A stretch of DNA of 64,000 nucleotides from an uncultured Desulfosarcina sp. (lineage in GTDB: Bacteria > Desulfobacterota > Desulfobacteria > Desulfobacterales > Desulfosarcinaceae), in NCBI GenBank assembly GCA_963674945.2, contig CAXXWQ010000003.1:352001-416000 (forward strand). Reading direction: 5' to 3'. A program made the translations under genes and the position numbers. The notes under the pieces were generated by a model that saw only the letters and a program-made list of their open reading frames with translations, did no database searches and was not told where the DNA came from. Below, in pieces: positions 16,029-36,344 of the stretch (position 1 is the first letter of the stretch; each line of letters starts with the position of its first letter).

Positions 16029-16287
16029 GTTTCCGGTTTCGACGAATTCTGTGTGAAGGCGTGGGCGGACGGATAGGTCGGAATTCGGCTACGGGTTAGG
16101 ATGCTATTTTGCTTGCCCGGCGGGTGGTGACGTTTAAGTGTTCCTGCAAGCGGATGGATTCTATGAATGGAAGGGAGATAAGGGAAATAAGCAAACGATG
16201 TTTCTGACTCTGCCAGATGGCAATCCTTTCGCTTTCGCCGGCCTGTGGGAAATGTGGGATAATATAAAACCTGTTGGCTTGTGGTAA
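16029..16287 (+). pseudogene. Degenerate IHF fragment fused by deletion to a central SRAP fragment (module A)
   Basis: Reads VSGFDEFCVK /fs/ RIGRNSATG*DAILLARRVVTFKCS, then ADGFYEWKGDKGNKQTMFLTLPDGNPFAFAGLWEMWD-NIKPV. Homologous to 28647-29331 and 36060-36344. Confidence 0.85.
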
Positions 16288-16335
16288 AAGGCATCAGCAT
16301 GGCAGATCCTGAACATTTTGAGATACTGAAACAGT

Positions 16336-16437
16336 ACCATTTTGTGGGCGTCCATGCTTTTTACTTGATTAAGAAATAAGTTCGAATCGGTTTTCCGTTT
16401 CAATTTGTTCTTCACGCTTCGAGGAGTGACTTGCCGT
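16336..16437. repeat. About 100-bp direct repeat (RAYT 3'-end relic), partner of 17618-17717
   Basis: accattttg..gcgtccatgcttt..acttgattaagaaataagttcgaatcggttttccg..cacgcttcgaggagtgacttgccg matches the copy at 17618 closely. Confidence 0.85.
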
Positions 16438-16451
16438 TTTTCTTACGGGTT

Positions 16452-17600
16452 TCACCCCCAGTTGATATTCGCCGGCAGTACACCTTCTTTCCCCGGTTTT
16501 CCGACAAGCTGCGGTACATACCGATTGAACGCGAACACAAATGGCATGCACAGGATCAAGCTTACCAGGGTTACCACACACGCGATACCGAAAAGGCCCA
16601 AACCGGACGGTGCAACACCGGTTTGCACCAATTTGGCCAGTGGAGGATTGAGATAGTGATAAAATATGCCATTTAGGCACATGAGCAGCAGGGTGTTCTG
16701 GCCTAGCCAAACCATTGGTTTCAGGGCGGGTGTAAAGGATGCCGCCAGTAGAACAAAAGCGCAACCGGCCAAGGCGGTCAAGGGGAACAGCAGCATGTTG
16801 CCGTGGGATGAAAAGAGTATGATGACGGCATCGTAGACATGAAACGGAAAGGGGCCGTTGTTCAACCGGTAGGTGAACAGGACCATCAGGAACGCACCTG
16901 CCGCAGCAGGCATCACGATCTTCATCGACACCACTTTTCGAAAAAGCCCCAGGCGCGTGAGGAGGACACCAACCAGATAGAAACTGTATAGGGTGATCGC
17001 CTCATGGATGAACAGATAGTTCCACCCCACGGTTCGACCTTTCAAGGGATTGAACAGATCGAGCTTCAAGTTCAATAGATAGCCTCCGACGTAAAAAATG
17101 AGAGCAGCGGCCACTATCTTGTAAGTGGAATCCTGTAAGAAACGAAAAACGCAGAAGTGAACGAGTTCGACCGAAAAGATCAGGAGGAGAAACCAGGAGG
17201 GAATGTCAAACGACGGCAGGCCGAACACGGTCGAAATGAGTCCCCCTGTATACCCTTGCACGCTGGGCAAGGACAGACCATAGAACTTGCCCTGAAAGAA
17301 TATGGGAGGAATCATCATCAAAAAGGTGAAAAAGATATAAGGCAGCAGGCGGGAAATGAATCGCTGTTTTAAAAATCTGCCCGTGCCCCATTCAAGCACA
17401 TTCTCTTTGGCGATGGTTCCGGACAAAACGATAAACAGCACCATATGAAATGAGTATATGAATTTATACTGGCCTGCGGCCGCCGTGTTCTTCAGCAGCA
17501 TCAGTTCCTCGATGAAGTGCCCGTAAAACACCAGTGCCATTGCATAAAATCGGGCAATGTCAATCATGACAATTCTTTTTTGATCGGTGCCGGCTGTCAT
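16452..17600 (-). CDS. Acyltransferase-3 family membrane O-acyltransferase
   Basis: RIVMIDIAR...LVFYGH, FIYSFHM..F..LSG, SWFL; multi-TM protein. Confidence 0.9.
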   Translation of the reverse strand: MTAGTDQKRIVMIDIARFYAMALVFYGHFIEELMLLKNTAAAGQYKFIYSFHMVLFIVLSGTIAKENVLEWGTGRFLKQRFISRLLPYIFFTFLMMIPPIFFQGKFYGLSLPSVQGYTGGLISTVFGLPSFDIPSWFLLLIFSVELVHFCVFRFLQDSTYKIVAAALIFYVGGYLLNLKLDLFNPLKGRTVGWNYLFIHEAITLYSFYLVGVLLTRLGLFRKVVSMKIVMPAAAGAFLMVLFTYRLNNGPFPFHVYDAVIILFSSHGNMLLFPLTALAGCAFVLLAASFTPALKPMVWLGQNTLLLMCLNGIFYHYLNPPLAKLVQTGVAPSGLGLFGIACVVTLVSLILCMPFVFAFNRYVPQLVGKPGKEGVLPANINWG

Positions 17601-17628
17601 AAACAGTTCCTCTCGGGACCATTTTGGA

Positions 17629-17911
17629 GACGTCTATGCTTTAATACTTGATAAGAAATGAGTTCGAATCGGTTTTTCGTTCCAATTCATTCTCCACGCT
17701 TCGAGGAGCGACTTGCCGCCAGGTGGCGTATGTTTCGTCTCCTCGCAATCTCGATGGTGCCATTTCAAATCGGACCTGAATATTTACCGCCGCTTGATTC
17801 CCATGATGCCCTCATGGTGCAACGCCCCGGGTGCATCCATTCTTGTTTTTCGTGGTATAATCACTTTTTATCAGGTGTAGTGGGCGGGGTAAAGCATGAA
17901 AGCATGACGTC
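17629..17911 (-). mobile_element. Internally deleted RAYT (REP-associated Y1 transposase) element / MITE
   Basis: The minus strand reads PRKTRMDAPGALHH..MGIKRR*IFRSD (RAYT N-terminus), joined to a RAYT C-terminal tail. Terminal inverted motifs GACGTC(T)ATGCTTT / AAAGCATGACGTC. Confidence 0.75.
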
Positions 17912-18108
17912 ACTATTTTTCCTCCGACATCAACATAAAGGATGAATTGATTTTTATCGAAAATGGTGTAGGCTCGTGTGAAATTTTCTTAGAAGCGTTC
18001 AAATGAAGATTTTGACGGGTGAGAGTTTCTTTTCGGGAAATCGAAATGTGATCCAGACGCCTTACAGCCATGAAAAAATGGTGAGCGCAAGCTCCGGATT
18101 GTTTTACT

Positions 18109-18930
18109 ATGAAAGGAAATATGTCTTTGAAATTCAACAAAAAGCTTGCTGCCCTATACAGTGCCATTGAGATGCATCGAAAAATTGTCGGTGTAAAATT
18201 TTTTTTTAATCTCCGTGATTTCGAAATCTCTTCACTCCGCACAGTACGCAGCCGCTTATCATTTTGCATGATGGTTAAAATCGCTTCGAGAGGTACGGGG
18301 CTCAAGGTCACCGAAGACAATTTCAAATGCCCGGGGTCTAGACGTGCATTGGGTATTGATAATGTGGATCGACAGTTCCGTTCTGGCGAAAAATATTTTG
18401 GGCTTGGTCTGTATAAAAACCTTGACACTGCAAGGAGTGTCGCTGATGAGATGCTTTTTCTGGACAGAAAACCAGCAGCTATGGCCGTTGCCCCCATTGA
18501 GCAGTTGGAAACTCCGCCCGATACGGTTGTCATGATTATCGATGGATACAGCGCAATGCGGATAATTCAGGGATACACATATCATTACGGCCAAGCGGGA
18601 CAAATCAGATTTTGCGGAAATCAAGGTGTTTGCTGTGAACTGACATCAAAACCCTTTATGGTTCAGGATATGAATATCTCATTATTGTGTTCCAACACGC
18701 GCTTTTCCTGTAAATGGCAGGATAGTGAGATCGGAATTGGCTTGCCATATCATATGCTGGAAGCTGTTGTTGACGGAGTTCTCAAAACTCTTAATTCTAC
18801 GGAGTCGGATAGGCGCAAAGTAGAAATCATAAAGCGTGCAAAAGCACATGGCCTTGATTTGGGTGTCGAGCTAGGAAATAATTATTTTAATAATGACCTT
18901 GGCATTGAAAAACGGAAAACCAAACTTTAA
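18109..18930 (+). CDS. DUF169-like protein
   Basis: VGVKFF, FCMMVKIA..G, CPG..RALG, PDTVVM, GNQGVCCE, SLLCSNTR pattern. Confidence 0.75.
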   Translation: MKGNMSLKFNKKLAALYSAIEMHRKIVGVKFFFNLRDFEISSLRTVRSRLSFCMMVKIASRGTGLKVTEDNFKCPGSRRALGIDNVDRQFRSGEKYFGLGLYKNLDTARSVADEMLFLDRKPAAMAVAPIEQLETPPDTVVMIIDGYSAMRIIQGYTYHYGQAGQIRFCGNQGVCCELTSKPFMVQDMNISLLCSNTRFSCKWQDSEIGIGLPYHMLEAVVDGVLKTLNSTESDRRKVEIIKRAKAHGLDLGVELGNNYFNNDLGIEKRKTKL

Positions 18931-18959
18931 CGGCGTGCCCTCTTGGCGAATAGGTACCA

Positions 18960-20075
18960 TTAGATGGGAGGGGAAGCCGAGTCAGCCATCGCCCTCGATG
19001 CGGCTACCATGGCATGGACATTCAGTGGTGGCGTTAAAAGCGGCATTGAACATGCCGGCATCAAAATAAACCCGCCGGGTAACGTTCTTCCAGCTTCAAT
19101 ACATCGGCAGGCTTCGGCATAAACATCAGCAGCGGAACCCGTCGCAAGAAGCGTGGTCGAAATATTCCCGCCAATGATATGGCGGTGGTTGAATGTGTCG
19201 GCGACTTTCTCCAGATCCATTTCTCCAATACTGAAAATGGTTCTCTCCGGCCAGGGAAGTTCGGCCCACGCGGCCAGATTATAATCGTGCCGGCCGCAAA
19301 TGTGGACAAAAAAACGTTTTACGCCTTTGTCAATCAGCTGTTGGTTGATTTTTTTTATTCGCGGCCACGAAAATGTCCTGAATATTCTCTCGCTGACAAG
19401 ATTGTTTGAATCTACCGGTGTACTTAGGAAAACCGAACAATTTTCAGCACCATATTCCTGAATCACCATTTCCGCGGCACTAAGGATAAACTTCATCGCT
19501 TTGTCATAAAGGGAATGGACTGCTTGCGGCTCCTGCAGGTACCATTTCATCAGTCTTTCTATGGACACCATGCCGGCCACCAGCGAAGAGACCGATCCAC
19601 CGCGTATCTTTACAGGATACCCCAGAGAATGGATGACCCGGTTGAATCGGGACAGATTGGGTAGCATACCCGCTGTTTGCGGATCTGGAACCTCCAAACG
19701 GTCCACATCCGACAGGCAGGTCACCGGAAATATGGCCGTGCGAGGCGCCGTATCCGCAATGGTAACAGGAAAATGACAGGCCCCGCCGAATTCCCAACCG
19801 CCCCAATCCGCCCATCCATAGGATGGAGAATCATCGACCTGCAAAAAGGCCTTGGTTAGGATCTGAACCTTCACATTGTCTTCAATGTTGGTGTAGTAGT
19901 CGTATAATGGCAATCCTGCCATCATTGCGGGGTAACCGTCGATAAAAGCAACGACCGGTGTCCTGTCGGGCTTTTGCCCCTGAACAACGGCTTGAAAGCG
20001 CCGATTCGATTGTAAGAATGAACGGCTCTGAAGCATCTGCTTCGTCCATTCTTCATATTGCGCCGAGATAGGCAT
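18960..20075 (-). CDS. URO-D superfamily / MtaA-CmuA-like Zn methyltransferase
   Basis: PDRTPV, PDP..AGMLP, HICG, GGNIST, GGFILMPACSMP..TPP.NV; exact start uncertain. Confidence 0.85.
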   Translation of the reverse strand: MPISAQYEEWTKQMLQSRSFLQSNRRFQAVVQGQKPDRTPVVAFIDGYPAMMAGLPLYDYYTNIEDNVKVQILTKAFLQVDDSPSYGWADWGGWEFGGACHFPVTIADTAPRTAIFPVTCLSDVDRLEVPDPQTAGMLPNLSRFNRVIHSLGYPVKIRGGSVSSLVAGMVSIERLMKWYLQEPQAVHSLYDKAMKFILSAAEMVIQEYGAENCSVFLSTPVDSNNLVSERIFRTFSWPRIKKINQQLIDKGVKRFFVHICGRHDYNLAAWAELPWPERTIFSIGEMDLEKVADTFNHRHIIGGNISTTLLATGSAADVYAEACRCIEAGRTLPGGFILMPACSMPLLTPPLNVHAMVAASRAMADSASPPI

Positions 20076-20772
20076 TCTGGATACTTTCGTTCCTGCTAAG
20101 GTCTTTGGAAGTTCCGCTTGCGACGATACGGCCGTTTTCCATCACGTAGTTATAATCTGAAATCCCTAAAGCGCGGCGCGCATTTTGCTCGACCAGCATT
20201 ATTGTGATCTGACGCTTGCTCAGCCTTTCAAGAACCGCGAAAAGCTCGCCAACCAAAAACGGAGCCAAGCCCAGACTCGGCTCGTCCAAAAGCAGCAGCT
20301 TGGGTTGCGCCATCAGTGCCCGTCCGATGGCCAGCATTTGTTGTTCTCCACCACTGAGCGCAACGGCCCGCTGTCGCAGGCGTTCGGCAAGCCTTGGAAA
20401 AAGGTCGAGGACCCACTCCAGGTTCTGTTGGAAGGTGTTTTTCCCGCGTTTTCCATATGCCCCCAGTTCAAGGTTCTCAAAAACGCTCATACCTGCAAAA
20501 AGAGCCCTGGACTCAGGAACCAGAGAGATACCCAGGCTGACAATCCGGTGGGGGCCGGAGTGATCGATCTTAACATCGAGGAAGCGAATGGTGCCACTGA
20601 CCGGACGAAGCAATCCGGCGATTGTTTTCAACGTAGTCGATTTTCCTGCACCGTTCGAACCAAGCAACGTAACCAGTTGCCCTTGCTGAATGTGCATATT
20701 GATCTTGCGAAGGACTTGTTGCCCGGCGTAATGTGCGTTTACCGATTCAAGGGTTAGCACGTGACTCTCCAA
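20053..20772 (-). CDS. livF: Branched-chain amino-acid-type ABC transporter ATPase
   Basis: GSNGAGKST, LSGGEQQMLAIGRALM, DEPSLGLAP. Confidence 0.92.
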   Translation of the reverse strand: MESHVLTLESVNAHYAGQQVLRKINMHIQQGQLVTLLGSNGAGKSTTLKTIAGLLRPVSGTIRFLDVKIDHSGPHRIVSLGISLVPESRALFAGMSVFENLELGAYGKRGKNTFQQNLEWVLDLFPRLAERLRQRAVALSGGEQQMLAIGRALMAQPKLLLLDEPSLGLAPFLVGELFAVLERLSKRQITIMLVEQNARRALGISDYNYVMENGRIVASGTSKDLSRNESIQNAYLGAI

Positions 20773-22552
20773 GGTAGGCGTTTATGACATTTGTATCCCT
20801 TCGCACCCTGGATGGATCGCCCTCGGCGATAACCCGTCCTTGATTGAGAACACTGACCTGATCGGAAAGCCCCATTACCAGACGCATGGTATGCCCGATC
20901 AACAAGATCGAAATACCCAGGCCGGAGCGAATCCGTTCGATAAGTTCCATCAGCGATTCCAGTTCCGAGGATGTCAGCCCTGCTGCGGGTTCGTCCAACA
21001 GCAGCATCCTTGGTTTTGATGACAGCGCCCTGGCGATTTCAAGCAGACGCTGATGGCCAAAGGCAAGCGATCCTGCCGGAAGATGTCCGTAGGACGATAG
21101 TCCGACGAAATCCAGAAGATCAAGTGCCGTATCGCGTATCTGTTTTTCTCTTTTCAGATGAACGCCGGTCTGGCCGCACATCTGGAAAAAATTCTGTTCA
21201 GTCACTGCTTCGGCTCCGAGAAGAACATTTTCGAGAACAGTCATCTGGCCGAAAAGCTCCACGTTCTGGAAAGTCCGGGCGATTCCCAAATGCGATCGCT
21301 GGCGGACTGGAAGATGCGTGATATCCGTTCCGTTGAAACGAATGTATCCTTTCTCGGTGCTGGTAAGCCCGGAAATGACATTAAAGATGGTCGTCTTTCC
21401 GGCACCGTTGGGACCGATAATGCCATGGATCTGCCTTTCGGATAGTGAAATATCAACTGCGTCGAGCGCCACCAACCCCCCGAAGCACACGCGGATTCCC
21501 TGTGCCTCAAAAAGTGTTTTTTCCCTTGGCAATTTCGTTTCGGCAGATTGATCTGTCTGAATAGAGTAAATTCTTTTCTGTGTTCTCCTGGAACGGTTCG
21601 TCTTCGCCGTGGAAATTGAGCGTTTGCCTGCGATCAGCCCGATGATCCCACGGGGGAGAAAAATAAGCAGCGCAAGCAGCAGAAGGCCGGTCAACAGATC
21701 TTTGTACTCCGCCGTGCCGCGCAGCAATTCCGGTAAAACAGTCAGCATACTGCCGCCAATGGCGGCACCCGCGATTGTTCCCATTCCACCCAGTATTCCC
21801 ATGGTCACATAGGTGATGGAGACAGGAAAAAGAAACGCATCGGGGTTAACGAATTGTGCCAAACCGGCATAGAGCCCGCCGGAAACGCCGGCGATCATGG
21901 CTCCTATTCCGAAGGCAAGGGTTTTGGTATGGTTAAGATCGATTCCCATCACCGTTGCGGCAAGTTCGTTGTCACGGATGGCTGTAAACGCCCGCCCCTG
22001 CCATGAATTGATAATGTTTGATGCCAAAACGAACACCACAATGACGATTGCAGCCAATGCGAAATGAAATGTCTCAGGATACAAATCCCATTTCAAAAAT
22101 CGAGGTACATCAATTGTCAATCCGTTGGGACCATTGGTCAAAGACATCCAGTTTTGTGCCACGAGAACAACAGTCATTCCAAAGCCAAAGGTCACCATGG
22201 CCACACACAATGGACCCAATCGCAGGGCCGGCATTGCAATGATACAGCCGGCAACTGCCGCCAGCAGGCTGCCAGCCCCGAGCGCAATCCAGTAAGGGAT
22301 GCCTGTATGTAACGTCAACAGTGCCGTGGTGTAGGAACCGATGGCGGCAAAACCGGCGTGCCCAAGGGATACCTGCCCCGCAAATCCCATAACGATGTTC
22401 ACGCCGAGTACGGCCGTAATGTTTATGAGACAGAGGCTCAGTATATACAAAGGATAGGAAGGCACAAAAAGAGGGGCGAACAGAACGATGGCTGTGCAGA
22501 GCACTATCAGAACTCTGCTTTCAACGACACGTAATTTCATGCTCGACGCCAT
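20747..22552 (-). CDS. Fused LivM permease + LivG ATPase
   Basis: GQVSLGHAGF, AIRDNELAA, then GPNGAGKTT, ARTFQ, DEPAAGL. Confidence 0.92.
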   Translation of the reverse strand: MASSMKLRVVESRVLIVLCTAIVLFAPLFVPSYPLYILSLCLINITAVLGVNIVMGFAGQVSLGHAGFAAIGSYTTALLTLHTGIPYWIALGAGSLLAAVAGCIIAMPALRLGPLCVAMVTFGFGMTVVLVAQNWMSLTNGPNGLTIDVPRFLKWDLYPETFHFALAAIVIVVFVLASNIINSWQGRAFTAIRDNELAATVMGIDLNHTKTLAFGIGAMIAGVSGGLYAGLAQFVNPDAFLFPVSITYVTMGILGGMGTIAGAAIGGSMLTVLPELLRGTAEYKDLLTGLLLLALLIFLPRGIIGLIAGKRSISTAKTNRSRRTQKRIYSIQTDQSAETKLPREKTLFEAQGIRVCFGGLVALDAVDISLSERQIHGIIGPNGAGKTTIFNVISGLTSTEKGYIRFNGTDITHLPVRQRSHLGIARTFQNVELFGQMTVLENVLLGAEAVTEQNFFQMCGQTGVHLKREKQIRDTALDLLDFVGLSSYGHLPAGSLAFGHQRLLEIARALSSKPRMLLLDEPAAGLTSSELESLMELIERIRSGLGISILLIGHTMRLVMGLSDQVSVLNQGRVIAEGDPSRVRRDTNVINAYLGESRANP

Positions 22553-23409
22553 TCCCCCCTGCCAAAGAGTCCATCAGGCCTGATTGCCAGCACGATCAAT
22601 AAAATGATGAATGCAATCACGTCTTTCATGCTGCTATCGAGATAAACACCGCCGAGGTTTTCGATGACCCCAAGGATGATGCCACCGAAAACTGCGCCAG
22701 GTATGCTTTTAAAGCCACCCAGAATCGCACCGATAAACCCTTTGATGCCGATACTGCCCATGTCTGGTGTGATGATGATCAACGGCGCCAATAAAATGCC
22801 CGCAACGGCGGCCAATGCTGAACTGAGCCCCCAGATCAAGGCAAAGTTCAATGGCACATGAATGCCCACGATGGATGCTGCCATTCGATTTTCGGATGTG
22901 GCTTTCATTCCCTTGCCCAGCCATGTTTTTGAGAAGAAAGCCGCTAAAGAAACCACCAGAAGAAGTGATGTGGCAATGATGCCAAGTCCCAATGGCGTCA
23001 CGGTAACACCAGCAAGTGTGAAAGGTGTGAGAGGAAACAAAGGAGGAAACTGGCTGACTTCCTGACCTCTGAATATGCGAACTGTAGCACGCATGATTTG
23101 GGCAACAGCAACCGTGGCGAGGATTACAGTAGTCTCCGGTGCGTTGAAGAGTGGCCGATAGATGATTACTTCCAGCAATATACCGAGTATTCCGGCCAGG
23201 ATTATCGCCAGAAGCACGGCCAGGATATATCCCATCCCGAAATCGAAGTGAAACAGGAGCGCAAAAATAGCCCCCAGCATCATCATTTCACCTTGTGCGA
23301 AATTAAGTACGCCAGTCGCTTTGTAAATGATGACAAATCCGATACCCACCAAGGCATACAGGCTGCCTAGCGTAATACCGCTGATAATAACTTGAGGAAA
23401 CAGAATCAT
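22537..23409 (-). CDS. livH: LIV-type ABC transporter permease
   Basis: GSLYALVGIGF..IY...GVLNFAQGE, AILGG..SIPGA. Confidence 0.92.
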   Translation of the reverse strand: MILFPQVIISGITLGSLYALVGIGFVIIYKATGVLNFAQGEMMMLGAIFALLFHFDFGMGYILAVLLAIILAGILGILLEVIIYRPLFNAPETTVILATVAVAQIMRATVRIFRGQEVSQFPPLFPLTPFTLAGVTVTPLGLGIIATSLLLVVSLAAFFSKTWLGKGMKATSENRMAASIVGIHVPLNFALIWGLSSALAAVAGILLAPLIIITPDMGSIGIKGFIGAILGGFKSIPGAVFGGIILGVIENLGGVYLDSSMKDVIAFIILLIVLAIRPDGLFGRGEWRRA

Positions 23410-23507
23410 CGGCTTGACCGGGAGGGAAAGTGCAAAGCGAGGATCGATGGCGTTTTATTGCCCCATCGATCCATCGCTCACTTGCGACCACTTTGTAACA
23501 ACAAATA

Positions 23508-24683: not shown

Positions 24684-25134
24684 CTTTGAACTCCCTTTTG
24701 GTTGTCTTGCCTGTCATAAAATCGCTCAATAGCTGTAAATAGAAATAGTAATCGACAGTTAATAATGGATAAACCACATACAGTCAAATACATATTTCAT
24801 ATGTTATCGGAAAGATAGATTTATAAAGTCTATATCGAGCCACCCATATTGTAGCCGGCAAACGAAATCTTTATCTACCCGCTTCATTTTTCACTCTTCT
24901 CTACCTCATTTCTCAGATTACGATCCGTGTGTACAAAGTTTGAAATGTAAAACGTGGAAGAGATAGAGAATATTGAAATATTTGGGGAGCGGATATTTTG
25001 AAGGATATAGTTATGAGCGGTGTGGATGCTGCAGGGCGTTGATGCATTTTACCAAATTCGATACAGGCAAATGCCAACCATTTTGTTCCACAACACCAAT
25101 GAGTGTAAGAACACTTCCTTGTTCGGATGACCTG

Positions 25135-25347
25135 TTACTCTTCAAGTGCATTCGATAGTTGATTGGAGCAATGACTCAGAAATTTGTTGTACTGACCTTT
25201 CGTAAGAAACAATCTATGAACGAATGGTTGATTTTGGCGTCCCTTGTCCAGGTTTTCCTTTTGGTCAAAACTGCACCTGACAATTTTCAAAGTGTCCAAA
25301 TCTATATCAATGAAATAGCGTGTGTCCTTATCTTTAATTCCGCTCAT
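25135..25347 (-). CDS. Small conserved hypothetical protein
   Basis: MSGIKDKDTRYFIDIDL...HRLFLTKGQYNKF, preceded by a GGAGA RBS. Confidence 0.6.
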   Translation of the reverse strand: MSGIKDKDTRYFIDIDLDTLKIVRCSFDQKENLDKGRQNQPFVHRLFLTKGQYNKFLSHCSNQLSNALEE

Positions 25348-25393
25348 TTGAATATTCTCCAAGAGTGCTATCGGAAATGATTTACTTACAATA

Positions 25394-28043: not shown

Positions 28044-28646
28044 AATATAATTCGGTTTAGAAACACGATTCTTTTCTCTCAATTTTGTCAGGACTTTTCC
28101 TTCGCGAGAAAAATGAATGGGATGGCAAGCGGGCCAAATACAGCACCCATGATAGCCCAGAATATCGTGTTCAGACCTCGTTTATCAGTAATAAACTATA
28201 AAAGGGCCGCACATCCAATGGGAATTATAATAATGACGAATTCTACCATAATGAATATTTCCTATTTGTTGTCTTTTTTTGAAAAACGAGAGTGTCTTTT
28301 TGAATAGACAATCAATGTGGTAGCTGGTGACCAGATTATCGTATATAGATTGATTTTGTCAAAAGGTTGCTTTTTAAAGGTTGGGTTATGTTGGATCCAC
28401 TCGTTTGGATTAGAGGAACTGGCAGTCCGTGAGTCCCAATTCCCAGCCAATTCCAATTTGTTTGAACTTCGATATCTTGTACCATCAGTGCCATAAGTTC
28501 TGATTGAGGTTGCATTTTCTGTGAACACCCCATACATCCGTAATGGTGATCGCGACAGAATTATCGATTTGACACCAAATGAAATATTTGCGACTTTGGA
28601 TCAGTCTCACCTGTTATTTCCGGCCCAACACTTACGGAGTAACCAT

Positions 28647-28931
28647 ATGGCACTAACGAAAAATGATATCGTTGATCGGATCTATGAAGAGCTTGGCTAT
28701 CCCAAAAATCAGGCCCAAGAAATCACAGAAGACCTGCTGGAAATCATGAAGTCAACCATGGAATCCGGTGATGATGTCCTGGTTTCCGGTTTTGGCAAGT
28801 TCTGTATTCAGGAAAAGAGAGCCCGGAAAGGAAGGAATCCGGCCACCGGTGAAGATTTGATGCTGCGGTCGAGACGGAGAGTTACCTTCAAGTGTTCCGG
28901 TAAGTTGCGGGAAAAGGTGAATGAGGGCTGA
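28647..28931 (+). CDS. ihfA: Integration host factor alpha-like protein (module B)
   Basis: MALTKNDIV...VLVSGFGKF...GRNPATGE...VTFKCSGKLREKVN. Confidence 0.93.
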   Translation: MALTKNDIVDRIYEELGYPKNQAQEITEDLLEIMKSTMESGDDVLVSGFGKFCIQEKRARKGRNPATGEDLMLRSRRRVTFKCSGKLREKVNEG

Positions 28932-28932
28932 T

Positions 28933-29331
28933 ATGTGTGGCAGATTCGTTGGATTCAGACCACTCGAAGAATTGCGACATCATTTTCCCATTAATGTTTC
29001 CAAAGTGGATGCCTCCGAAAATTTCAATGTAGCCCCATCTCAAGAAGTCCTTGCCATTGCCCGTTACGTAGGCAAAAATCATCTGGTTACATTCAACTGG
29101 GGTCTTGTTCCCTTTTGGGCCAAGGATATCAGCATCGGAAACCGGATGATCAATGCACGTTCTGAGACCGCCGCAACGAAACCCAGCTTTCGCGATGCTT
29201 TCAGGAAACGCCGATGCCTGATCCTTGCGGATGGATTCTATACAGAACTGAAAGCCATTCCCGTTTCCAAGCAGGTAAATTCGGTGCAAAACAATCGGCC
29301 GGAAAATATAAAACCAGTTGACACAAAATAG
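28933..29331 (+). pseudogene. SRAP (YedK/HMCES) protein with an in-frame internal deletion
   Basis: MCGRF, NVAPSQ, WGLVPFW, INARSET, RRCLILADGFY joined directly to the C-terminus PVSKQVNSVQNN...IKPV. The central EW...HDRMP region is missing. Confidence 0.88.
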
Positions 29332-29366: not shown

Positions 29367-29729
29367 ATGTTCTGTCCAAAATGCAGAGCCGAATATCGAG
29401 AAGGTTTTCATACCTGCTCGGATTGCAATATTGAACTGGTCGATGAGTTACCTCTATTGCCTGAACCTGAATTTGTGGATTTTATTGAAATATTGGCCAC
29501 CTACAGTCCAGCAGATGTAGTATTTTTAAAATCTTTACTTGAAAGCGAAGGAATCCAATATTTTTTCAAAGGTGAGCATTTTATGTACATGCGTCCTCTG
29601 GCTGATCCTGTGAGACTGATGGTAAGGAAAGACCAGGTTGAAGAAGCCGCTGAATTGGTAAAGGATGTCAGGTTATCTGTTGCCGGGCTGAGTTTGGATA
29701 AGAGATCTGAGGATGATGATGGTGATTGA
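29367..29729 (+). CDS. Zinc-ribbon + DUF2007 (putative signal-transducing) protein
   Basis: MFCPKCRAEYREGF..CSDC...LV; KSLLESEGI. Confidence 0.85.
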   Translation: MFCPKCRAEYREGFHTCSDCNIELVDELPLLPEPEFVDFIEILATYSPADVVFLKSLLESEGIQYFFKGEHFMYMRPLADPVRLMVRKDQVEEAAELVKDVRLSVAGLSLDKRSEDDDGD

Positions 29730-29786: not shown

Positions 29787-31298
29787 TCATGACATCTCTA
29801 ACAGATACTTGCCTTTCACCCTTTTGTCCTCAGATATATGCCACCGTTTATGCGTCAAAGTGTCTAAAAAACGCTGGTCATGGCTCACGAGAAGCATTCC
29901 GCAGGGACAATCGGCCAGGGCTTGCTCTAAACATTCGATGGAAGGCAAATCAAGGTGGTTGGTCGGCTCATCCATGATGATAAGATGCGGTACGTTGGCG
30001 ATACCGGTGGCAAGAAGAATTTTCCGAATCTCTCCGGGACTGGGCGCTATGCTTTCCAACAGTCGTTGGGGTCTTGATCCCAGACAGCTGACGACGGTCA
30101 TCATTTGCCCCAGTTTATTATGGGGAAGATCTCGCGCCCGGGCCATGATATCCTTCGATGCATGGATATCAATCTCTTGTGGTAAATAGGTGACATGATC
30201 TTCCTGCAGATGAAGCGATTGTAGAATATGGTTGATCAATGTGCTTTTCCCGCTGCCGTTCGACCCTGTAAGGGCGATACGATCATCGGGTTTCATGGAC
30301 AAATCGGGAAAATGCAGCCATCTGTCTCCTCCCAGGGACAGTGACCCGGCGGGAAAGTTGAACAGGGTGTCTCGTCTTGATTTTGCTCCCGACATCCAGA
30401 TCCCCAGCGTATTCGTTTTCTTAACCCTGATACGATCCATTTTCATGCGAGCCTGGGATAGGCGACCACCGAGCTGGTTTAATCGTTTTCCGGCAATGCC
30501 GTCTTTTCCGGTCAGACGGCCCAAATTGATTTTTTCCCGCCCGTCACGGTCCTTTGACGCCAATCCTCTCTTCGATCGCTTTCGATTCGCCTGTGAGGCG
30601 GCATCCCTGCGTTTGGCCGCCTCACGCCGTAATCTTGAGAATTCATGTTTGGCTTGAGCACGTTGTTTTTGAACGGACATCTCATCCTTCACCGCCTGCT
30701 TTGCGCCCTGGGAATAGTTGCCCGGTCGTAATATGGCTTCCGGTGGTTCGATAAAGAGGCATTGATGGCATAAATTATTTAAAAGCGCACGGTCGTGGCT
30801 GACCAGAATCCCGACACCGCGAAAGTCCGAAAGCGCGGCAAACAATTTATTCTGTGCTTCGATATCGAGATGATTGGTGGGTTCGTCCACCGCCAGGACC
30901 TGCGGTTTCTGCCACAAAGCAACGGCGATCTGAGCCCGTTTACGCTCACCGTGGCTAAGGGTTTTCCACCGCTTTCCCCAATCATCTTCGACGCCCAATC
31001 GACCTTTGATCAAGACGGCTTCTCTATCGACTGCATGAATCAGATCGTTTAGCTGCTCCGGTGCATTATCCGTTCGTTGCTGGCAGTAAACCACGAAATC
31101 AGGGATGCTCATTTGTCCTTGCTGTGGCTCCAGGCCGCCGGTGGCAAGTTTCAAAACAGTGCTTTTCCCCACTCCGTTAGCGCCAACGATGCCGGTCCAG
31201 CCTCGGTTGAAGTGTGCCGACAAATTAAGGATCAAGGGTTGGGTCGCCCTGTCATAACCAAATGATACATTTTGAAATCGGACAGACAAATCGGCCAT
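29787..31298 (-). CDS. ABC-F family ATPase (two ABC domains, no TM segments)
   Basis: GANGVGKST, LSHGE, DEPTNHLD, SHDR; second domain GSNGSGKST, SPGE, DEPTNHLD, SHD. Confidence 0.92.
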   Translation of the reverse strand: MADLSVRFQNVSFGYDRATQPLILNLSAHFNRGWTGIVGANGVGKSTVLKLATGGLEPQQGQMSIPDFVVYCQQRTDNAPEQLNDLIHAVDREAVLIKGRLGVEDDWGKRWKTLSHGERKRAQIAVALWQKPQVLAVDEPTNHLDIEAQNKLFAALSDFRGVGILVSHDRALLNNLCHQCLFIEPPEAILRPGNYSQGAKQAVKDEMSVQKQRAQAKHEFSRLRREAAKRRDAASQANRKRSKRGLASKDRDGREKINLGRLTGKDGIAGKRLNQLGGRLSQARMKMDRIRVKKTNTLGIWMSGAKSRRDTLFNFPAGSLSLGGDRWLHFPDLSMKPDDRIALTGSNGSGKSTLINHILQSLHLQEDHVTYLPQEIDIHASKDIMARARDLPHNKLGQMMTVVSCLGSRPQRLLESIAPSPGEIRKILLATGIANVPHLIIMDEPTNHLDLPSIECLEQALADCPCGMLLVSHDQRFLDTLTHKRWHISEDKRVKGKYLLEMS

Positions 31299-31310
31299 GG
31301 GTATCCTCTA

Positions 31311-31450
31311 AATAAAAAAGCCACGGTTGCCCGTGGCTGTCAATGGTATTGGAAATGAAGTTGTACTATGAGCAACGGGTCAGAGTCGTCAACACACACC
31401 TATCAGAAAAGGCAAATATGCCATTCTTCCATGTGTTACCAATGTTTCAT
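31311..31450 (-). promoter_or_regulatory. Putative attenuator in the ABC-F leader (terminator hairpin + short uORFs)
   Basis: AGCCACGG-gcaa-CCGTGGCT-TTTTT about 15 nt before the start codon. uORFs MKHW*, MEEWHICLF*, MAYLPFLIGVC*. Confidence 0.6.
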
Positions 31451-31893
31451 TTGGAATATCGGTGTGGTTGTGGCGATATTATTTTTTCACCCCGTTAGCC
31501 CCTTATCTTAATTGCGGTAGTGGATTTTCAGATTTGGATGATAAAATTTGCCCCGTTACGTATCAGGTACAAGGTGGTATGTCAATTTCAAAACGGAACC
31601 GGTATCCGGATGGCATTTGCCGAAAAATAAGCCGCCCAAGTGCTGAGACATTTAGATACTAATTTTCCATACCCTCTGTCAAATGATGAGATAGAAACGA
31701 TTCCGTTCACCTTCTGATTATAAATGGAGACAAGAATGTCATGGGGATCAAGAAAATTTGACATAGCTTCGCGTCACGGGTATAGAGTTTAGAAAAAATC
31801 TCAAGATAACAAGGGCAAAAATATTGATTTGGGATGAAGGAGTTTTCCGTTTACAGATTAACACAGCTTTGAGCAATGTAGAGAATAATTATA

Positions 31894-32754
31894 ATGGGTG
31901 ACAGGGAGTATAGCCGCACTGCAGAACTCACCGCCGCCATCCGTGCCTGGCACTATTTACACGGAGAGCATCCGCTAATCTTGGAAGATCCAATTGCAAT
32001 TGACCTATTGAGCCCTGAATTACACAGGCAATGCCTCGATGGAGACATGCGAGATAGATTTGGACGTAGTGGTGGGTCCGCCATCGTTCTTGGTCGAGCT
32101 CGCTATGCGGAAGATAAACTGGAAAAAGCAGTGCGATCGGGTACGAATCAATATGTCATACTAGGTGCCGGCGGGGACTCTTTCGCATTGAGGCGTCCGG
32201 ATCTGATGGAGAAAATCCGTGCATATGAGATCGACCAACCGGGAACCCAAGAATGGAAGCGGGAATGTCTGATGGAGCACGGCCATGCGTTGCCGACATC
32301 TTTGGAGTTCATTCCCGCCGACCTTGAACATGAAACGGTCCTTGAGGTTCTGGATCGGTCCTCTTTCAGAAAAGACCAACGCGTATTTTTCTCATGGCTT
32401 GGTACGTTAATGTATCTCACCCCAGAGGCGATCTTCGGCACCCTGCGAACTCTTGCTGAAGCGCTTGCCTCGGGCAGTGAAATTGTTTTTGATTATCGTG
32501 TACAGACTGAATTTATCGACCCTGATGATGTTGACATTGTCCTAAAAGGTGACGAGGCAACAGCAGCGATGGGGGAGCCCAAAAAATCATTTTTCAATCC
32601 CCATACATTTCCAGATGAAATTAAAGCAACGGGCTTCGAAATGGTTGAGAACCTTTCCCCGAAGCAGCTAACCCGGCGGTACCTTAAAAATAGAAAAGAC
32701 TTGGTGAAGCCGACAACGCATCAATGGTATGCTCATATACGTCTTTGCAGCTGA
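31894..32754 (+). CDS. SAM-dependent methyltransferase (leucine carboxyl methyltransferase-like)
   Basis: SRTA...AAIRA, QYVILGAGGD, YEIDQP..Q..K, WLG.LMYL. Confidence 0.9.
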   Translation: MGDREYSRTAELTAAIRAWHYLHGEHPLILEDPIAIDLLSPELHRQCLDGDMRDRFGRSGGSAIVLGRARYAEDKLEKAVRSGTNQYVILGAGGDSFALRRPDLMEKIRAYEIDQPGTQEWKRECLMEHGHALPTSLEFIPADLEHETVLEVLDRSSFRKDQRVFFSWLGTLMYLTPEAIFGTLRTLAEALASGSEIVFDYRVQTEFIDPDDVDIVLKGDEATAAMGEPKKSFFNPHTFPDEIKATGFEMVENLSPKQLTRRYLKNRKDLVKPTTHQWYAHIRLCS

Positions 32755-32806
32755 TTGAATTTTCTGATTCCTCTATCTAATTCAGACCAGGGTGTCTGAA
32801 TTGCCC

Positions 32807-32950
32807 TCAGCGGGTGAAGAACTCACCACCACCAACGCCGAATATCTGTCCGGTGATAAAACGCGACGCATCACTGACAAGGAATACCACCACCGGCGCC
32901 AAGTCGGCCTCCGATTCTCCGAAACCTCCGCCGAGCGGGATGAATGAGGC
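32807..32950 (-). pseudogene. C-terminal remnant of an SDR oxidoreductase
   Basis: [39 protein letters not shown]; truncated where the RAYT relic begins. Confidence 0.7.
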
Positions 32951-32967
32951 AGATTCAGGAAGGACCT

Positions 32968-33389
32968 TCGGGGTCAGGTCTCCACATTACACATTTTGAC
33001 CATTTTTCAATTCTCTCTACCTGCTTTCTCAGATGGCGATCTGTCTTTACCTCATTCAGGAACCAGGAGTAGGATTGGGGAACGGCGGAATCACCGATTC
33101 CGAATCGATCACCAATTGCTGCAAGGATGGCGGTTGTATACTTACGGCACAAAAAAATCTGAACTTTTCTGGAAAGGCTGGGTTTTTCTTCAAGCACCGA
33201 TTCAACGGTTTGGCAGATGCCTGGTAATGTTGCTTGGCGGGTCAACTGTTTCAGCGCCGGATTATTTCGGCCTGACTTCTGGTGGGAAATATATTCATCC
33301 TTATTGAAATCGATAAACGCCTGACTTCCAAGAAGGAAGGAACCAAAGATGTCTTTCATATCAATTCGAACAAAAACGTTTTTTATCAC
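32968..33389 (-). pseudogene. 3' remnant of a RAYT-type transposase (DnaA C-terminal-like HTH)
   Basis: LLGSQAFI, IFLCRKYT...IGDRFGIGDSAV; ends at AATGTGGAGACCTGACCC. Confidence 0.65.
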
Positions 33390-33664
33390 AACACAAGCTC
33401 GGCAAACACGAATGAAAACAACAGAATCTTAACAAGAATTACCCTCCTGTGAGTGGGGCGATTTTGTTCAGTTAACTTGAAAGCGATTCCAGAATTGCGT
33501 TTTTATGACAGCAAAATTGGACACCTTCTGAACCATCAAACCCGGACAGGGGGAAGACTTAAAAAGGCAGAGCCCCGTTAGCGGCCCTGACGAACACCGC
33601 CAATTCGTTGGAATAACTATATTTCTCTATTTTTTCGAAGCTCTGCCATTCATCCGGTAAAACA

Positions 33665-34198
33665 TCATGCCACGGAAAATCTTACGTTGTATGGGATGGT
33701 ATGAATTGCCTGATCTGCAAGTTGCCGAGTTATTTTGTACTTCGACAAGTTCATGCTGATTTTGAAAAGCCACTTGTAATAAAAATAGGGCATCACGTTT
33801 ACGGTTCTAAGTTCTTCCAACTTCCTGTCAGCCCAGTAATATGCTCGCGTAAAGTTCCAGCAATATGCAAAATATCTGATAGGCGTAACGATGACCTTCG
33901 TAAGGCGTTTCATAATCCACCTCCCGGTGCGATAGACGCTACCCTGCCACATCGATCCCTGGATCACATCCCAAGTGCTCGTCTTTGTTTTCGCATTCAA
34001 AGTTTCTATGTCGGGTATCAACGTGTCCTTCATTATCATCTTTCCCGTAATCTTCTCTTCTATTTTCGGCCATGATATCACCTCTCTGACTTTATGCTTG
34101 GTTGTTGATTTTTCTCTTGTCTGGTCAAAAGAGACGGCATCAACGAAATTGGACAATGTGAGCCGGTTGGTTGTTGAATGGTAGGGAAATACTGCCAA
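33665..34198 (-). CDS. Hypothetical protein
   Basis: 177-aa ORF with no recognised motif; start uncertain. Confidence 0.4.
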   Translation of the reverse strand: MAVFPYHSTTNRLTLSNFVDAVSFDQTREKSTTKHKVREVISWPKIEEKITGKMIMKDTLIPDIETLNAKTKTSTWDVIQGSMWQGSVYRTGRWIMKRLTKVIVTPIRYFAYCWNFTRAYYWADRKLEELRTVNVMPYFYYKWLFKISMNLSKYKITRQLADQAIHTIPYNVRFSVA

Positions 34199-34531
34199 TC
34201 AATAGTAGTGGGCTTGTAGTGCGGGGTATAATGATTTTAAAATCAGGGCTGATGCAAATGATCTATTCATCTTCTGGCGGCGGTGAAAAAATGACGAACG
34301 CTGCTGAACTTGATCAGACCGCGTATGATATTTTGGCCGGCATTCCCCCGATGTTGGGTTCTTTATTTGTCGGCGTTCAGAAAAACCTGCATGTAAAAGT
34401 GTTCCCCCACCGTTATCGTTTTTTCCGGTACCAACGGAATTTATTGTATCAGCTCTTCCGGTGAGTATCTGTTTTCCATTGGGAGGTATTACAAGGAACG
34501 CTTCGAGTGATGTGTGAAATGAAAAGAGATA

Positions 34532-35212
34532 CTATTTCCCCAACCACCTCAATATCCCCCGAAGTAAGGCGGCACTATGGCTGATCTGTTTATAAGCCTC
34601 CTCCCTGGACAGCAACCGGCCTTCCTTTTCCAACTGGTATCCCAGCTTCGCTGACAGATTGGCGATCCTGGCGACTTCCTTTACCAGATCTTCCTCGGAT
34701 CGGATCTCAATGGGATAGATTTCAATCTTAGACCAATTTACCAGGACTTCATTCTCAATAATACCATCCGTTACAGTGTGATTTTTCTGATTGTAGGCAT
34801 TGTAAAGGGTATTGTGAAGAGGCTGGGACAGGTCACCGACGTAGTGAACACAGAATGCCAGATTGTATTCAGCGTATTTTCCTGTTTTCGTGGTAGTCCG
34901 GTATTCTCTGATGGACTGAATGATGGCCCCGCAAAGGTGGCCTTTCTCGTCATCGGGATTGTTGTAGAGATCGGCCTGATTCAGTACCATTTCCGGTGTC
35001 ACCATTGTACCAGGTGGGTTGTTCACGTAGTGGTTCTTATTTTCAACGTCACCGGCTTTGGTTTTGGTGATATCGGCTCCGGCGGCATTATACCATTTCT
35101 CATAGCCGGCAGCCTTGGCGATAGCGAGATGGGTTTCGTCGTTCCAGGCCCAGCCTGATGCGGAGAACACCCAAAGTGTTAGGAACATCAACCATACTAT
35201 AACTCGTTTCAT
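34532..35212 (-). CDS. Secreted zinc-dependent phospholipase C / S1-P1 nuclease-fold protein
   Basis: Signal peptide, then W-x-x-x-x-H (WNDETH) and HYVGDLSQPLH. Confidence 0.82.
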   Translation of the reverse strand: MKRVIVWLMFLTLWVFSASGWAWNDETHLAIAKAAGYEKWYNAAGADITKTKAGDVENKNHYVNNPPGTMVTPEMVLNQADLYNNPDDEKGHLCGAIIQSIREYRTTTKTGKYAEYNLAFCVHYVGDLSQPLHNTLYNAYNQKNHTVTDGIIENEVLVNWSKIEIYPIEIRSEEDLVKEVARIANLSAKLGYQLEKEGRLLSREEAYKQISHSAALLRGILRWLGK

Positions 35213-35349
35213 CTTCAGTGCACCGATTGATTGAAAGTTACGCCACACCAAACACACGATTCCAGTTTGAAGGACGGTAATGTATGAACAGGTCTTTATG
35301 CAACGAGACATATCCTCGACCAGGCATCTTGTCAATGATAACCAACCCC

Positions 35350-35580
35350 TTGACACTAAATGAAATTTTTGCCACTTTGGATCAGTCCCACCTGTCATTT
35401 CCAGCCCAACATTTATGGAGTGACCATATGGCACTGACGAAAAACGACATCGTTGATCGGATCTATGAAGAGATTGGCTATCCCAAAAACCAAGCCCAGT
35501 TTCCGTGATGCTTTCAGAAAACGCCGAAGCCTGGGCCTTGCGGATGGATTCTATGAACGGAATGGAGATAGGTGATCCCA
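35350..35580 (+). pseudogene. Doubly deleted IHF-SRAP module (module C)
   Basis: Leader and MALTKNDIVDRIYEEIGYPKNQA match 28569-28715. The sequence then jumps to SRAP PSFRDAFRKRRSLGLADGFYE, then to the ATAGGTGATCCCA leader. Confidence 0.88.
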
Positions 35581-35940
35581 ATGAAATGTGAAAAGTGTAA
35601 AGCGATTATCCCCACAAACGACGAACGTGAATTTCATGGCAAAATGATCTGCGAAGACTGCTATATGGTCGCTCTTTCGCCTGCCAAAGCCTGTGATCCA
35701 TGGGCGGTATATTCCGCAAAGTCATTCTCAGATAAAACTGACGCTGAAACGAAGATTACCGAGACGCAGTCGAAAATATTACAGATCTTGAAAGAAACTG
35801 GTGGCATTGAGCCCGATGAGCTATCAGAGAGCCTTCAAATCGGACCGTCAGATCTCGAAAGAGAGGTTGCCACACTCCGTCATATGGAAAAACTCAGGGC
35901 TGAATTGCGAGATGGGAAAAAATTCCTTTGTCTGTGGTGA
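35581..35940 (+). CDS. CxxC zinc-ribbon + winged-HTH hypothetical protein
   Basis: MKCEKC...CEDCYM...KACDPWAV...LEREVATLRHMEK. Confidence 0.8.
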   Translation: MKCEKCKAIIPTNDEREFHGKMICEDCYMVALSPAKACDPWAVYSAKSFSDKTDAETKITETQSKILQILKETGGIEPDELSESLQIGPSDLEREVATLRHMEKLRAELRDGKKFLCLW

Positions 35941-36059
35941 AACTGAAAGGCAAGCCAGGATTTCTTCATTGCCATTTGAACAAAGGCAAACCGCGCTATA
36001 TTTCGGTCTGGAACCATTCACTCCTTTCAACTCCAGTAAACATTTACGGGGCACTCTTT

Positions 36060-36344
36060 ATGGCACTGACGAAAAATGATATCGTCGAAAAGATCCAGAA
36101 CCAGCTTGGCTTTCTAAAGTTTCAGTCCAAAGAGATCACAGAGATCTTACTGAAAATCATAAAGTCGGCGATGGAATCCGGTGACGATGTCCTGGTATCA
36201 GGCTTTGGAAAATTTTGCGTAAGGAAAAAGGCGGAGCGGAGAGGTCGGAATCCTGCTACCGGAGAAGATGCCATATTGCCCGCTCGACGAGTGGTCACAT
36301 TCAAGTGTTCGGGAAAGTTACGGGAAAAAGTGAACGGGGAATAA
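36060..36344 (+). CDS. ihfA: Integration host factor alpha-like protein (copy D)
   Basis: MALTKNDIV...VSGFGKF...GRNPATGE...VTFKCSGKLREKVN. Confidence 0.93.
   Translation: MALTKNDIVEKIQNQLGFLKFQSKEITEILLKIIKSAMESGDDVLVSGFGKFCVRKKAERRGRNPATGEDAILPARRVVTFKCSGKLREKVNGE

Follow-up and report, generated by a model that had tools for sequence, protein, structure and literature searches.

Integron cassette arrays are runs of small unrelated genes separated by repeats, and ICEs of the ICESt1 family reportedly accrete in tandem. The uncultured Desulfosarcina sp. analysed here carries, within a 64-kb stretch of DNA (the window), a series of ihfA and SRAP sequences that resembles integron arrays in having small unrelated genes with repeats between them. 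The repeat here, however, is a protein-coding operon on one strand rather than attC, and no tyrosine recombinase lies within 453 kb.

SXT/R391 arrays and hybrids show ICEs accumulating in tandem at a single site and undergoing deletion there (PMC5812530), and flexible, MGE-encoded IHF_A, IHF_B and HU are described from Acidithiobacillia (PMC10561277; review PMC6606824). The consulted sections of PMC3765255 place SRAP/YedK beside umuCD, imuAB-dnaE2, dinB/lexA, Ku-ligase and a RecD-like helicase, and also note SRAP in prophages. The ihfA-srap stack is an undescribed instance of a known behaviour, island-borne IHF. As in the consulted parts of the Acidithiobacillia accounts (PMC10561277, PMC6606824), extra ihfA genes are found on plasmids and integrated elements besides single syntenic core copies, reach up to 8 ihfA per genome and are usable as island markers. 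A link to SRAP is unreported in the consulted part of PMC10561277, whereas ihfA here heads an operon with pilZ and srap that is seen mainly as serial relics. As with the SXT/R391 elements (PMC5812530, as consulted), recombination and deletion have reshaped related elements piled up at a single site, here a tRNA-Lys gene, but the tRNA-Arg site of the window keeps neither an att scar nor an integrase. The domain is the same as SRAP/YedK (PMC3765255), with Cys2, Glu and His all conserved in the intact C4 copy of this genome; IHF, however, is absent from the main text of that source, and the umuCD, imuAB-dnaE2, dinB/lexA, Ku-ligase and RecD-like partners were unrecognised beside SRAP here.

Structure and decay of the window copies

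The window contains four ihfA copies (modules A to D, Table 1), all on one strand, with SRAP sequence joined to A, B and C. This arrangement, already recognised in the preliminary description, is confirmed by blastn, by Pfam (SRAP relic of module A, E 4e-10) and by contigs of sequencing run X1, possibly the source sample, which show 0 differences where they span the junctions of modules A, B and C. The intact window ihfA genes have the Bac_DNA_binding fold (PF00216), and their best PDB and NCBIfam matches are IHF-alpha, not beta or HU. They score 97 and 104 bits against an NCBIfam equivalog cut-off of 111 bits, which is not diagnostic, as core ihfA genes of the same genome also miss it (95 and 98 bits).

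Table 1. Features in and around the ihfA-SRAP modules (positions within the window)
Feature	Position	Strand	Remarks
43-aa acidic peptide gene, 3' relic	14742..14813	-	multi-copy gene; second copy at 33935-34200
52-aa hydrophobic ORF	14826..14984	-	
Lys/Ala-rich small basic protein	15165..15608	+	without Pfam match
Cold-shock protein gene (csp)	15733..15933	+	
Module A ihfA	16028..16147	+	degenerate C-half; blastn E 4e-15 to another ihfA
Module A SRAP relic	16147..16263	+	residues ~99-136, fused to ihfA relic; E 6e-19
Acyltransferase region	16336..17858 (gene 16452-17600)	-	flanked by two 101-bp direct repeats
Cargo	18109..26405	.	DUF169, URO-D-like protein, branched-chain-type ABC transporter (from ORFs), flavin reductase, small ORFs
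IS, DDE_Tnp_1_4 transposase	26388..28043	+	1 of 26 near-identical copies in genome
Module B leader	28569..28646	+	begins at TTGACA box; upstream half lost
Module B ihfA	28647..28931	+	intact accessory ihfA, 94 aa; PF00216 E 2e-27
Module B SRAP	28933..29331	+	residues 104-197 lost in frame
Zn-ribbon/DUF2007 gene	29367..29729	+	
Cargo	29787..33389	.	ABC ATPase, leucine-carboxyl-type methyltransferase, C-terminal RAYT-like relic
43-aa acidic two-Cys peptide gene	33561..34200 (gene 33935-34066)	-	conserved leader and 3' element
Methyltransferase 3' relic and S1/P1 nuclease gene	34350..35188	-	divergent from module C
Module C full leader	35329..35427	+	carries TGTCAA-N14-TTGACA inverted repeat
Module C ihfA-SRAP fusion	35428..35575	+	ihfA codons 1-24 (35428-35499), then SRAP residues 82 to ~109
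119-aa Cys-rich/winged-helix protein	35581..35940	+	
Module D ihfA	36060..36344	+	intact accessory ihfA, without SRAP
DUF3820 exonuclease-like gene, 15-codon relic	36385..36429	+	weak, E 0.036
Mu-like prophage	37329..64000, on to ~C3:433.7 kb	-	between module D and tRNA-Arg(TCG)

No intact SRAP is present in the window; modules A, B and C have each been broken by deletion. The breaks fall mostly at words of 4-11 nt common to both sides; in module C, ihfA and SRAP join at a word of ~10-11 nt, and the SRAP end is fused to the downstream ribosome-binding site. What had been taken for scars around cargo are deletions inside the operon, not insertion junctions. The ADGFY motif, near which three window breaks lie, was rejected as a fragile site, as relics elsewhere break at other positions. 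The SRAP of module B keeps Cys2 but is predicted to be inactive, as the equivalents of the catalytic Glu105 and His160 of YedK are within the lost residues; none of the window copies holds the equivalents of Cys2, Glu105 and His160 in one chain.

Pairwise identity among the window copies is 66-92% (A vs B and D, 66-70%). An alignment of modules B and C covers 149 bp at 90% identity (E 7e-50). Their dS is 0.46-0.54 and their dN 0.02-0.06, and they diverged under purifying selection; the dS between B and D is 1.38. If a single resident operon had been duplicated in tandem on the spot and the copies had then decayed, this would account for all copies being on the same strand within 20 kb and for B being the closest match to C among the loci compared (87-92%). 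This explanation is improbable, since A and D reach just 66-73% identity with B and are closer to copies elsewhere, the flanks of B and C have nothing in common outside the leader and a 13-nt ribosome-binding stretch, and B and C diverged under purifying selection. With dS values of ~0.5 to 1.4 among the window copies, a single recent duplication event, the counter-explanation raised in the preliminary description, is unlikely, while an older B-C duplication is conceivable.

The TTGACA-starting leaders of B and C match at 69 of 78 bases, as expected from their earlier description as shared, but TTGACA is not their common start, since most leaders extend further upstream: more shared sequence precedes the box in 24 distinct full-length leaders among the instances listed, and has been lost in B. 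The TGTCAA-N14-TTGACA inverted repeat, kept in many module leaders, may more simply be read as two back-to-back -35 boxes. The leader of B is a putative promoter; a sigma-70 consensus scan of it returned 0 sites. The leader was also considered as an att site or SOS box: across the genome the inverted-repeat spacing shows no enrichment, and a leader matrix scanned over it matched only two module leaders, with recA and lexA unmatched.

The module had been proposed to be the conserved end of a mobile unit. If IHF-SRAP ended a transposon-like or site-specific unit, with the leader inverted repeat as its recombination site, this would fit the conservation of that repeat, the loss of homology at or within 2 nt of TTGACA in B, in the C3:901 kb copy and in a G007 copy, and the location of one copy in a 9.6-kb stretch between a phage terminase gene and a pre-portal gene that are adjacent in L210. 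However, most leaders run on upstream of TTGACA, selection for expression would be expected to spare the sequence from a -35 box onward, relic breakpoints are scattered from copy to copy with no common boundary, and the terminase-portal site holds unrelated cargo in L208 and L209. The terminase-portal insert (C3:893-903 kb) was also tried as an empty-site test and rejected, the shared word being just 6 nt and the cargo differing in relatives. Searches at the modules and their flanks for common termini, terminal inverted repeats, target or att duplications, and a cognate transposase or dedicated recombinase found none, and no transposase family recurs among the module neighbours examined. A discrete transposon-like unit is already largely refuted, and this origin is regarded as very unlikely.

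The accessory operon in the genus and on mobile DNA

The accessory operon has the order leader, ihfA, often pilZ, srap and a variable gene, and is distinct from the two syntenic core ihfA paralogues. All SRAP genes examined in the genus (21/21) have ihfA or its relic upstream (3 weakly), 10 of them with pilZ between, while outside the genus ihfA or a relic precedes SRAP in 2/28. An ihfA tree (a quick one, 94 columns, with 4 broken rows excluded) splits off the two housekeeping, or core, lineages, each separated from the rest by a single branch (support 93 and 97), and the accessory copies do not form one clade. The accessory copies are non-syntenic, with 1-8 sites per near-complete genome, and the operon is not confined to this locus, being multi-copy and on mobile DNA across the genus. 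The presence of a homologue in G000 was tried as a measure of neighbour variability (accessory 78/365, core1 37/61, core3 23/36, core2 9/105), a weak proxy that was rejected as confounded by core2. Among phage collections, IMG/VR contains one ihfA and one weak SRAP fragment, and INPHARED gave no DNA match.

Plasmid Do28_1 has a MOBQ relaxase and T4SS genes of the Dot/Icm type. It bears ihfA, a SRAP with a deletion, DUF3820 and a Lys/Ala-rich (K-rich) gene, and the module occupies an internal position. Two other module copies of this genome lie inside tRNA-Leu and tRNA-Lys islands, which are delimited by duplications of the tRNA 3' end and have an integrase gene on that side; the tRNA-Lys site has three att copies, and its island encodes a coupling protein, ParB, SSB and RepB-primase. 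The accessory ihfA genes are non-core extra copies on a plasmid and on bounded islands, as are MGE-encoded (flexible) nucleoid-associated proteins.

Of 32 module sites, 14 have a tRNA 3' end no more than 50 kb away, against 7.5 at random (p 0.008), and 16 have an integrase no more than 50 kb away, against 8.7 at random (p 0.003); for the tRNA 5' side the count is 7, against 7.0. Ten of the 32 are more than 100 kb from any tRNA 3' end, and core1 ihfA itself is 3 kb from tRNA-Thr. A consistently linked integrase, which the preliminary description proposed to look for, was not seen: a tyrosine integrase is within 5 kb at just 3/32 sites and the nearest to the modules of the window is 453 kb away. 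The resolvase family PF00239 has 0 members in the genome, and the module is not associated with any one family of elements.

Origin of the region at tRNA-Arg(TCG)

The window is located 3' of tRNA-Arg(TCG) in a strain-variable region, and the 3' side of His-Arg(TCG) has a module in 5/9 genomes (G000, G011, G015, G018 and G020). The copies do stand between variable genes, as first described, but these are not all unrelated, as several recur beside ihfA elsewhere (Pfam was run on selected module neighbours). The gene order K-rich, csp, ihfA relic, SRAP recurs at C4:829-828 kb, and K-rich homologues adjoin modules at C3:903 kb, C4:829 kb and on plasmid Do28_1, where a DUF3820 gene is 3' of ihfA-SRAP. 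The flavin reductase gene is also upstream of an ihfA relic-SRAP in G001; the start of the Zn-ribbon/DUF2007 gene is also 3' of SRAP in G009, and the gene is 3' of ihfA in G046. The methyltransferase/S1/P1 nuclease arrangement, divergent from a module, is also seen in G016, G018, G023, G013, G014 and G019, a homologue of the 119-aa protein gene adjoins an ihfA relic in G023, and a divergent homologue of the 52-aa ORF is upstream of intact ihfA-srap in G118 (another family; L161). The 43-aa peptide gene, with no match in NCBIfam or Atlas, is multi-copy in the genus and frequently next to modules.

The acyltransferase is a passenger; its 101-bp repeat was rejected as attC, as the right repeat lies within the remnant of the N-terminal part of a RAYT-like (Y1) transposase gene. 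The DDE_Tnp_1_4 IS is not part of the module, and the Mu-like prophage is likely a separate insertion forming the boundary of the finding. tRNA and Rfam scans of the window gave nothing above cut-off.

The region probably consists of the remnants of three or more islands, acquired independently and stacked at a tRNA-Arg(TCG) hotspot. Since a conjugation-type plasmid and tRNA islands carry the same operon, the window copies likely represent several eroded mobile elements that arrived from outside, not one new transposon. Repeated backbone genes point to stacking at the tRNA-Arg site; no att duplicate of tRNA-Arg or tRNA-His was found there, nor any tRNA-Arg 3'-end duplicate of >12 nt over 260 kb, and a search of C3:200-440 kb with six integrase queries was negative for relics of such genes. 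Related bacteria carry the accessory ihfA-(pilZ)-srap on a conjugation-type plasmid and tRNA-anchored islands; several islands were probably acquired independently beside tRNA-Arg(TCG), their remnants then likely being fused by recombination and trimmed by short-homology deletions. From the intact operon its element would gain an additional IHF-alpha, which would bend DNA during integration or transfer or at cargo promoters. The operon would also supply a PilZ protein with predicted c-di-GMP binding and a SRAP that, by prediction, protects abasic sites in DNA transferred as a single strand. Once the element was grounded, SRAP would become dispensable and decay, with some ihfA copies retained.

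The module may instead be a landing pad for integrase-free capture of genes, at which DNA arriving with a module copy and cargo undergoes a RecA-dependent single crossover into a resident copy and leaves the cargo between direct repeats; this is compatible with stacked island remnants, the driver being homology instead of tRNA integration. It would fit the direct orientation of all four window copies and of other close pairs (9/10 by coordinates, several of them kin), and the Arg site without att scars. In G009, two 99%-identical ~3-kb copies flank ~20 kb with an operon reading as a membrane hydrogenase, and in G021 and G022 two ihfA modules flank a four-gene redox-type cluster. However, fresh crossovers would leave near-identical copies rather than the 66-92% identity of the window, direct orientation is also expected from tandem site-specific arrays, and csp, the peptide gene and an IS are other multi-copy genes offering equal homology; the landing pad is considered rather unlikely. 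It is unlikely that ihfA-pilZ-srap is the universal recombination anchor of the Desulfosarcina mobilome, whereby plasmid- and island-borne metabolic operons would be captured by integrase-free module crossover, each capture leaving a soon-deleted repeat.

Meaning for sediment sulfate reducers

SRAP in the context of IHF, PilZ and conjugative DNA was not found in the literature searched, and this context suggests that SRAP may protect transferred single strands. If the anchor reading is true, these bacteria would have an integrase-free route for amassing catabolic and redox operons, and module relics would count past capture events. The module is a sequence marker by which old islands that lack an integrase can be recognised in sediment sulfate reducers.

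Structure and lineages of the ihfA-SRAP copies

The four ihfA-like copies claimed in the preliminary description (modules A to D) are all genuine, each lying on the + strand of the window (C3:352001-416000) in a genome of 7.08 Mb. The closest named relatives of the SRAP protein are mostly Desulfosarcina records, which makes the host a likely member of that group. As aligned with YedK, the internal loss in module B takes out the equivalents of Glu105 and His160, which are required for crosslinking (PMC9436759), and thus none of the window copies is predicted to have SRAP activity. Contigs of sequencing run X1, which may be the source sample, span the A, B and C junctions with 0 differences.

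Features of the window discussed in the text (window coordinates)
Feature	Coordinates	Strand	Content
Module A	16028-16147	+	Degenerate C-half of ihfA, joined to SRAP residues about 99-136
Module B		+	Intact 94-aa ihfA, then SRAP with residues 104-197 lost in frame
Module C		+	ihfA codons 1-24 joined to SRAP 82 to about 109
Module D		+	Intact ihfA, without SRAP
Catabolic genes	682-14509		Acyl-CoA/HpaB family, left of module region
IS	9276-10931; 26388-28043		
Peptide gene	33935-34200	-	43-aa acidic two-Cys peptide
Peptide gene relic	14742-14813		
Small protein	15165-15608		Lys/Ala-rich
Transposase relics	16336-16436; 17618-17858; 32955-33389		RAYT-like
Prophage	37329-64000		Mu-like, on to C3 433.7 kb
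Repeat ORF	62780-63958		120-nt (40-aa) tandem repeats, within prophage

Compared with intact copies, the junctions are deletions: the ihfA-SRAP fusion of C lies at a common word of about 10-11 nt, its second fusion at one of 4-5 nt and the internal SRAP loss of B at a 5-nt word, while the fusion of A is close to a 6-nt word yet has no exact crossover, all these words being judged by eye on alignments without a chance model. B and D share 73% identity with a dS of 1.38, and A is 66-70% identical to both. C matches B at 87-92% identity, the differences comprising 11 synonymous and 4 replacement changes. D clusters with two other copies of this genome and with those of two relatives (G015 and G020) at the Arg site, the 3' side of tRNA-Arg(TCG) next to the window region (support 97, quick tree). 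The window's ihfA copies are thus of at least three lineages, so recent tandem duplication does not account for the region; an old duplication possibly gave B and C.

The IS must have undergone a recent burst, to judge by its 26 near-identical genome copies. In relatives (L120, L121, L122), short inserts are flanked by repeats of the RAYT-like N-terminal piece. Counterparts of the catabolic genes, recognized by ORF starts and one DNA match, are found in G010 (L145) about 20 kb from ihfA modules.

The accessory operon across the genus

The DNA search with module B finds matches in 24 of 24 sampled genomes of the same genus, SRAP being present in 22 of the 31 genomes searched. Among 21 intact genus SRAP genes with upstream DNA examined, 10 have a full-length intact ihfA upstream and 11 a broken ihfA or tail (3 of them weak), with pilZ (PF07238) lying between ihfA and SRAP in 10; outside the genus, ihfA is directly upstream in 2 of the 28 best-matching SRAP loci. 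The leaders, gathered with a motif ending at TTGACA, precede ihfA, SRAP or a relic in all 24 distinct full-length instances listed (23 called by tblastn, one by eye), and their conservation, which takes in a TGTCAA-N14-TTGACA repeat, extends farther upstream. Neighbours recur in similar order: genes for the 43-aa peptide, for a methyltransferase and for an S1/P1 nuclease diverge from the module, and those downstream are of the DUF2007, DUF3820, KH-domain or AEP-TOTE type. The order K-rich, csp ahead of module A is seen again at C4:829 kb.

The Lys/Ala-rich small protein, with five or six genome copies (at least three adjoining csp or ihfA) and no Pfam match for its family, is possibly a nucleoid-associated protein. 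The 43-aa peptide gene, whose product has no family match, is multi-copy (in this genome also at C4:977.9 kb, 2207.6 kb and 2457 kb) and widespread in the genus; its conserved leader of about 140 nt contains a sigma-54-like GG-N10-GC word.

In ihfA neighbourhoods of eight near-complete genomes, plus five of the eight matches of G011, three core paralogues keep their context (in 8, 9 and 4 genomes). Each is one side of a branch (support 93, 97 and 96) in a quick tree of 94 columns and 61 rows (4 broken rows excluded; careful search unfinished), where the other 40 rows are not one clade. At 38 non-core loci, none of 353 neighbours comes from a family that three other genomes also have close to ihfA, compared with 33/86, 78/114 and 24/55 at the core groups, a count that is partly circular because the groups were first defined by synteny; an independent proxy for neighbour variability gave a weaker contrast, with one core group failing. 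In accessory pairs dN is far below dS, and the intact copies have therefore been under purifying selection. An ihfB-like and HU-like gene pair occurs twice in this genome (L003:12781-13400 and L007:5674-6311), at distances of 15-23 kb from sites with accessory ihfA or SRAP.

Mobile DNA and the tRNA-Arg(TCG) site

The accessory operon rides on mobile DNA. Do28_1, a conjugation-type plasmid of 136 kb with a MOBQ relaxase and Dot/Icm-type secretion genes, carries a module of intact ihfA, SRAP with an internal deletion and DUF3820, with the K-rich gene 3.4 kb further. In this genome, the C3:901 kb copy lies within a 161-kb stretch from tRNA-Leu(GAG) to its duplicated 3' end, and the C4:828 kb copy within a 157-kb stretch from tRNA-Lys(CTT) to the first of three duplicates, both stretches having an integrase gene at the duplicate end. 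The tRNA-Lys(CTT) 3' end is present as three copies of 46 bp (C4:935.8, 947.6 and 963.1 kb), all accompanied by an integrase and a second, degenerate copy, and these clearly form a tandem island array.

Eight genomes gave 32 module sites, counting copies less than about 30 kb apart as one. A tRNA 3' end lies within 50 kb of 14 (random 7.5, p 0.008) and within 20 kb of 7 (random 3.3, p 0.04), both thresholds being our own choice, and the tRNA 5' side has no enrichment. An integrase, from a set with clustered matches thinned and one Integrase_1 gene added, is within 50 kb of 16 sites (random 8.7, p 0.003) and within 5 kb of only 3; these tRNA and integrase p values overstate the significance because the genomes are kin. 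The proposal that IHF-SRAP is a conserved mobile end is not supported, and a unit with defined ends is very improbable, as it fails on boundaries, target duplications and recombinase.

The 3' side of tRNA-Arg(TCG) differs in every genome fetched and has a module in 5 of 9, namely this genome, G011 (3.3 kb away), G018 (27 kb), G020 (31 kb) and G015 (100 kb, beyond a related prophage), while no Arg-site module was found for G004, G009, G010 or G023. A distance of 50 kb separates module D and the tRNA 3' end; prophage (called Mu-like by gene order and baseplate match) makes up about 44 kb of it, which leaves about 5.5 kb. Neither an att duplicate nor an integrase relic was found at the Arg site, which counts against clean integration. 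This genome, G023 and G009 have, at tRNA-Asn, a module accompanied by an AEP-TOTE-type gene.

The Mu-like prophage has a relative at tRNA-Arg(TCG) in G015 (L195, L196), and the D12 methyltransferase end region of the Mu-like prophage is found again at C3:8 kb and C3:1965 kb. Right 3' of tRNA-Arg(TCG), about 100 bp are duplicated in tandem (C3:437.9-438.1 kb). In a prophage family (L004:3700-13300), one relative has no insert between terminase and the gene preceding portal, where others contain varied cargo, as compared in L208, L209 and L210.

Island accretion and the place of the operon

It is fairly probable that related mobile islands came one after another to the tRNA-Arg(TCG) hotspot, where every incoming island would hold the ihfA-(pilZ)-srap operon in its backbone and would then, through recombination and deletion at short homologies, be joined to others and worn down; such stacking, fusion and erosion of elements are described for SXT/R391 arrays (PMC5812530). 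The main rival, in which cargo is captured through crossover into the module, draws on direct repeats flanking cargo operons in G009, G021 and G022 (cargo named by eye from ORFs) and is considered rather unlikely. The intact operon may provide extra IHF-alpha, c-di-GMP sensing and protection of transferred single strands, as family knowledge suggests.

Accessory IHF is reported on plasmids and integrated elements (PMC10561277, PMC6606824), and the SRAP contexts in PMC3765255 include no IHF, though its full neighbourhood tables could hold the linkage. Literature searches found no SRAP linked with PilZ and IHF (occasional papers mention SRAP or yedK with IHF), no report on Desulfosarcina ihfA, none joining SRAP, conjugative plasmids, abasic sites and single-stranded DNA, and, by title or abstract start, nothing on an ihfA-pilZ-srap operon. 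The ihfA-(pilZ)-srap arrangement is a real accessory operon, apparently undescribed so far. Rather than a new mobile end, it is a variation on what is known of IHF borne by mobile elements and of island accretion, and it is a good marker for island turnover.
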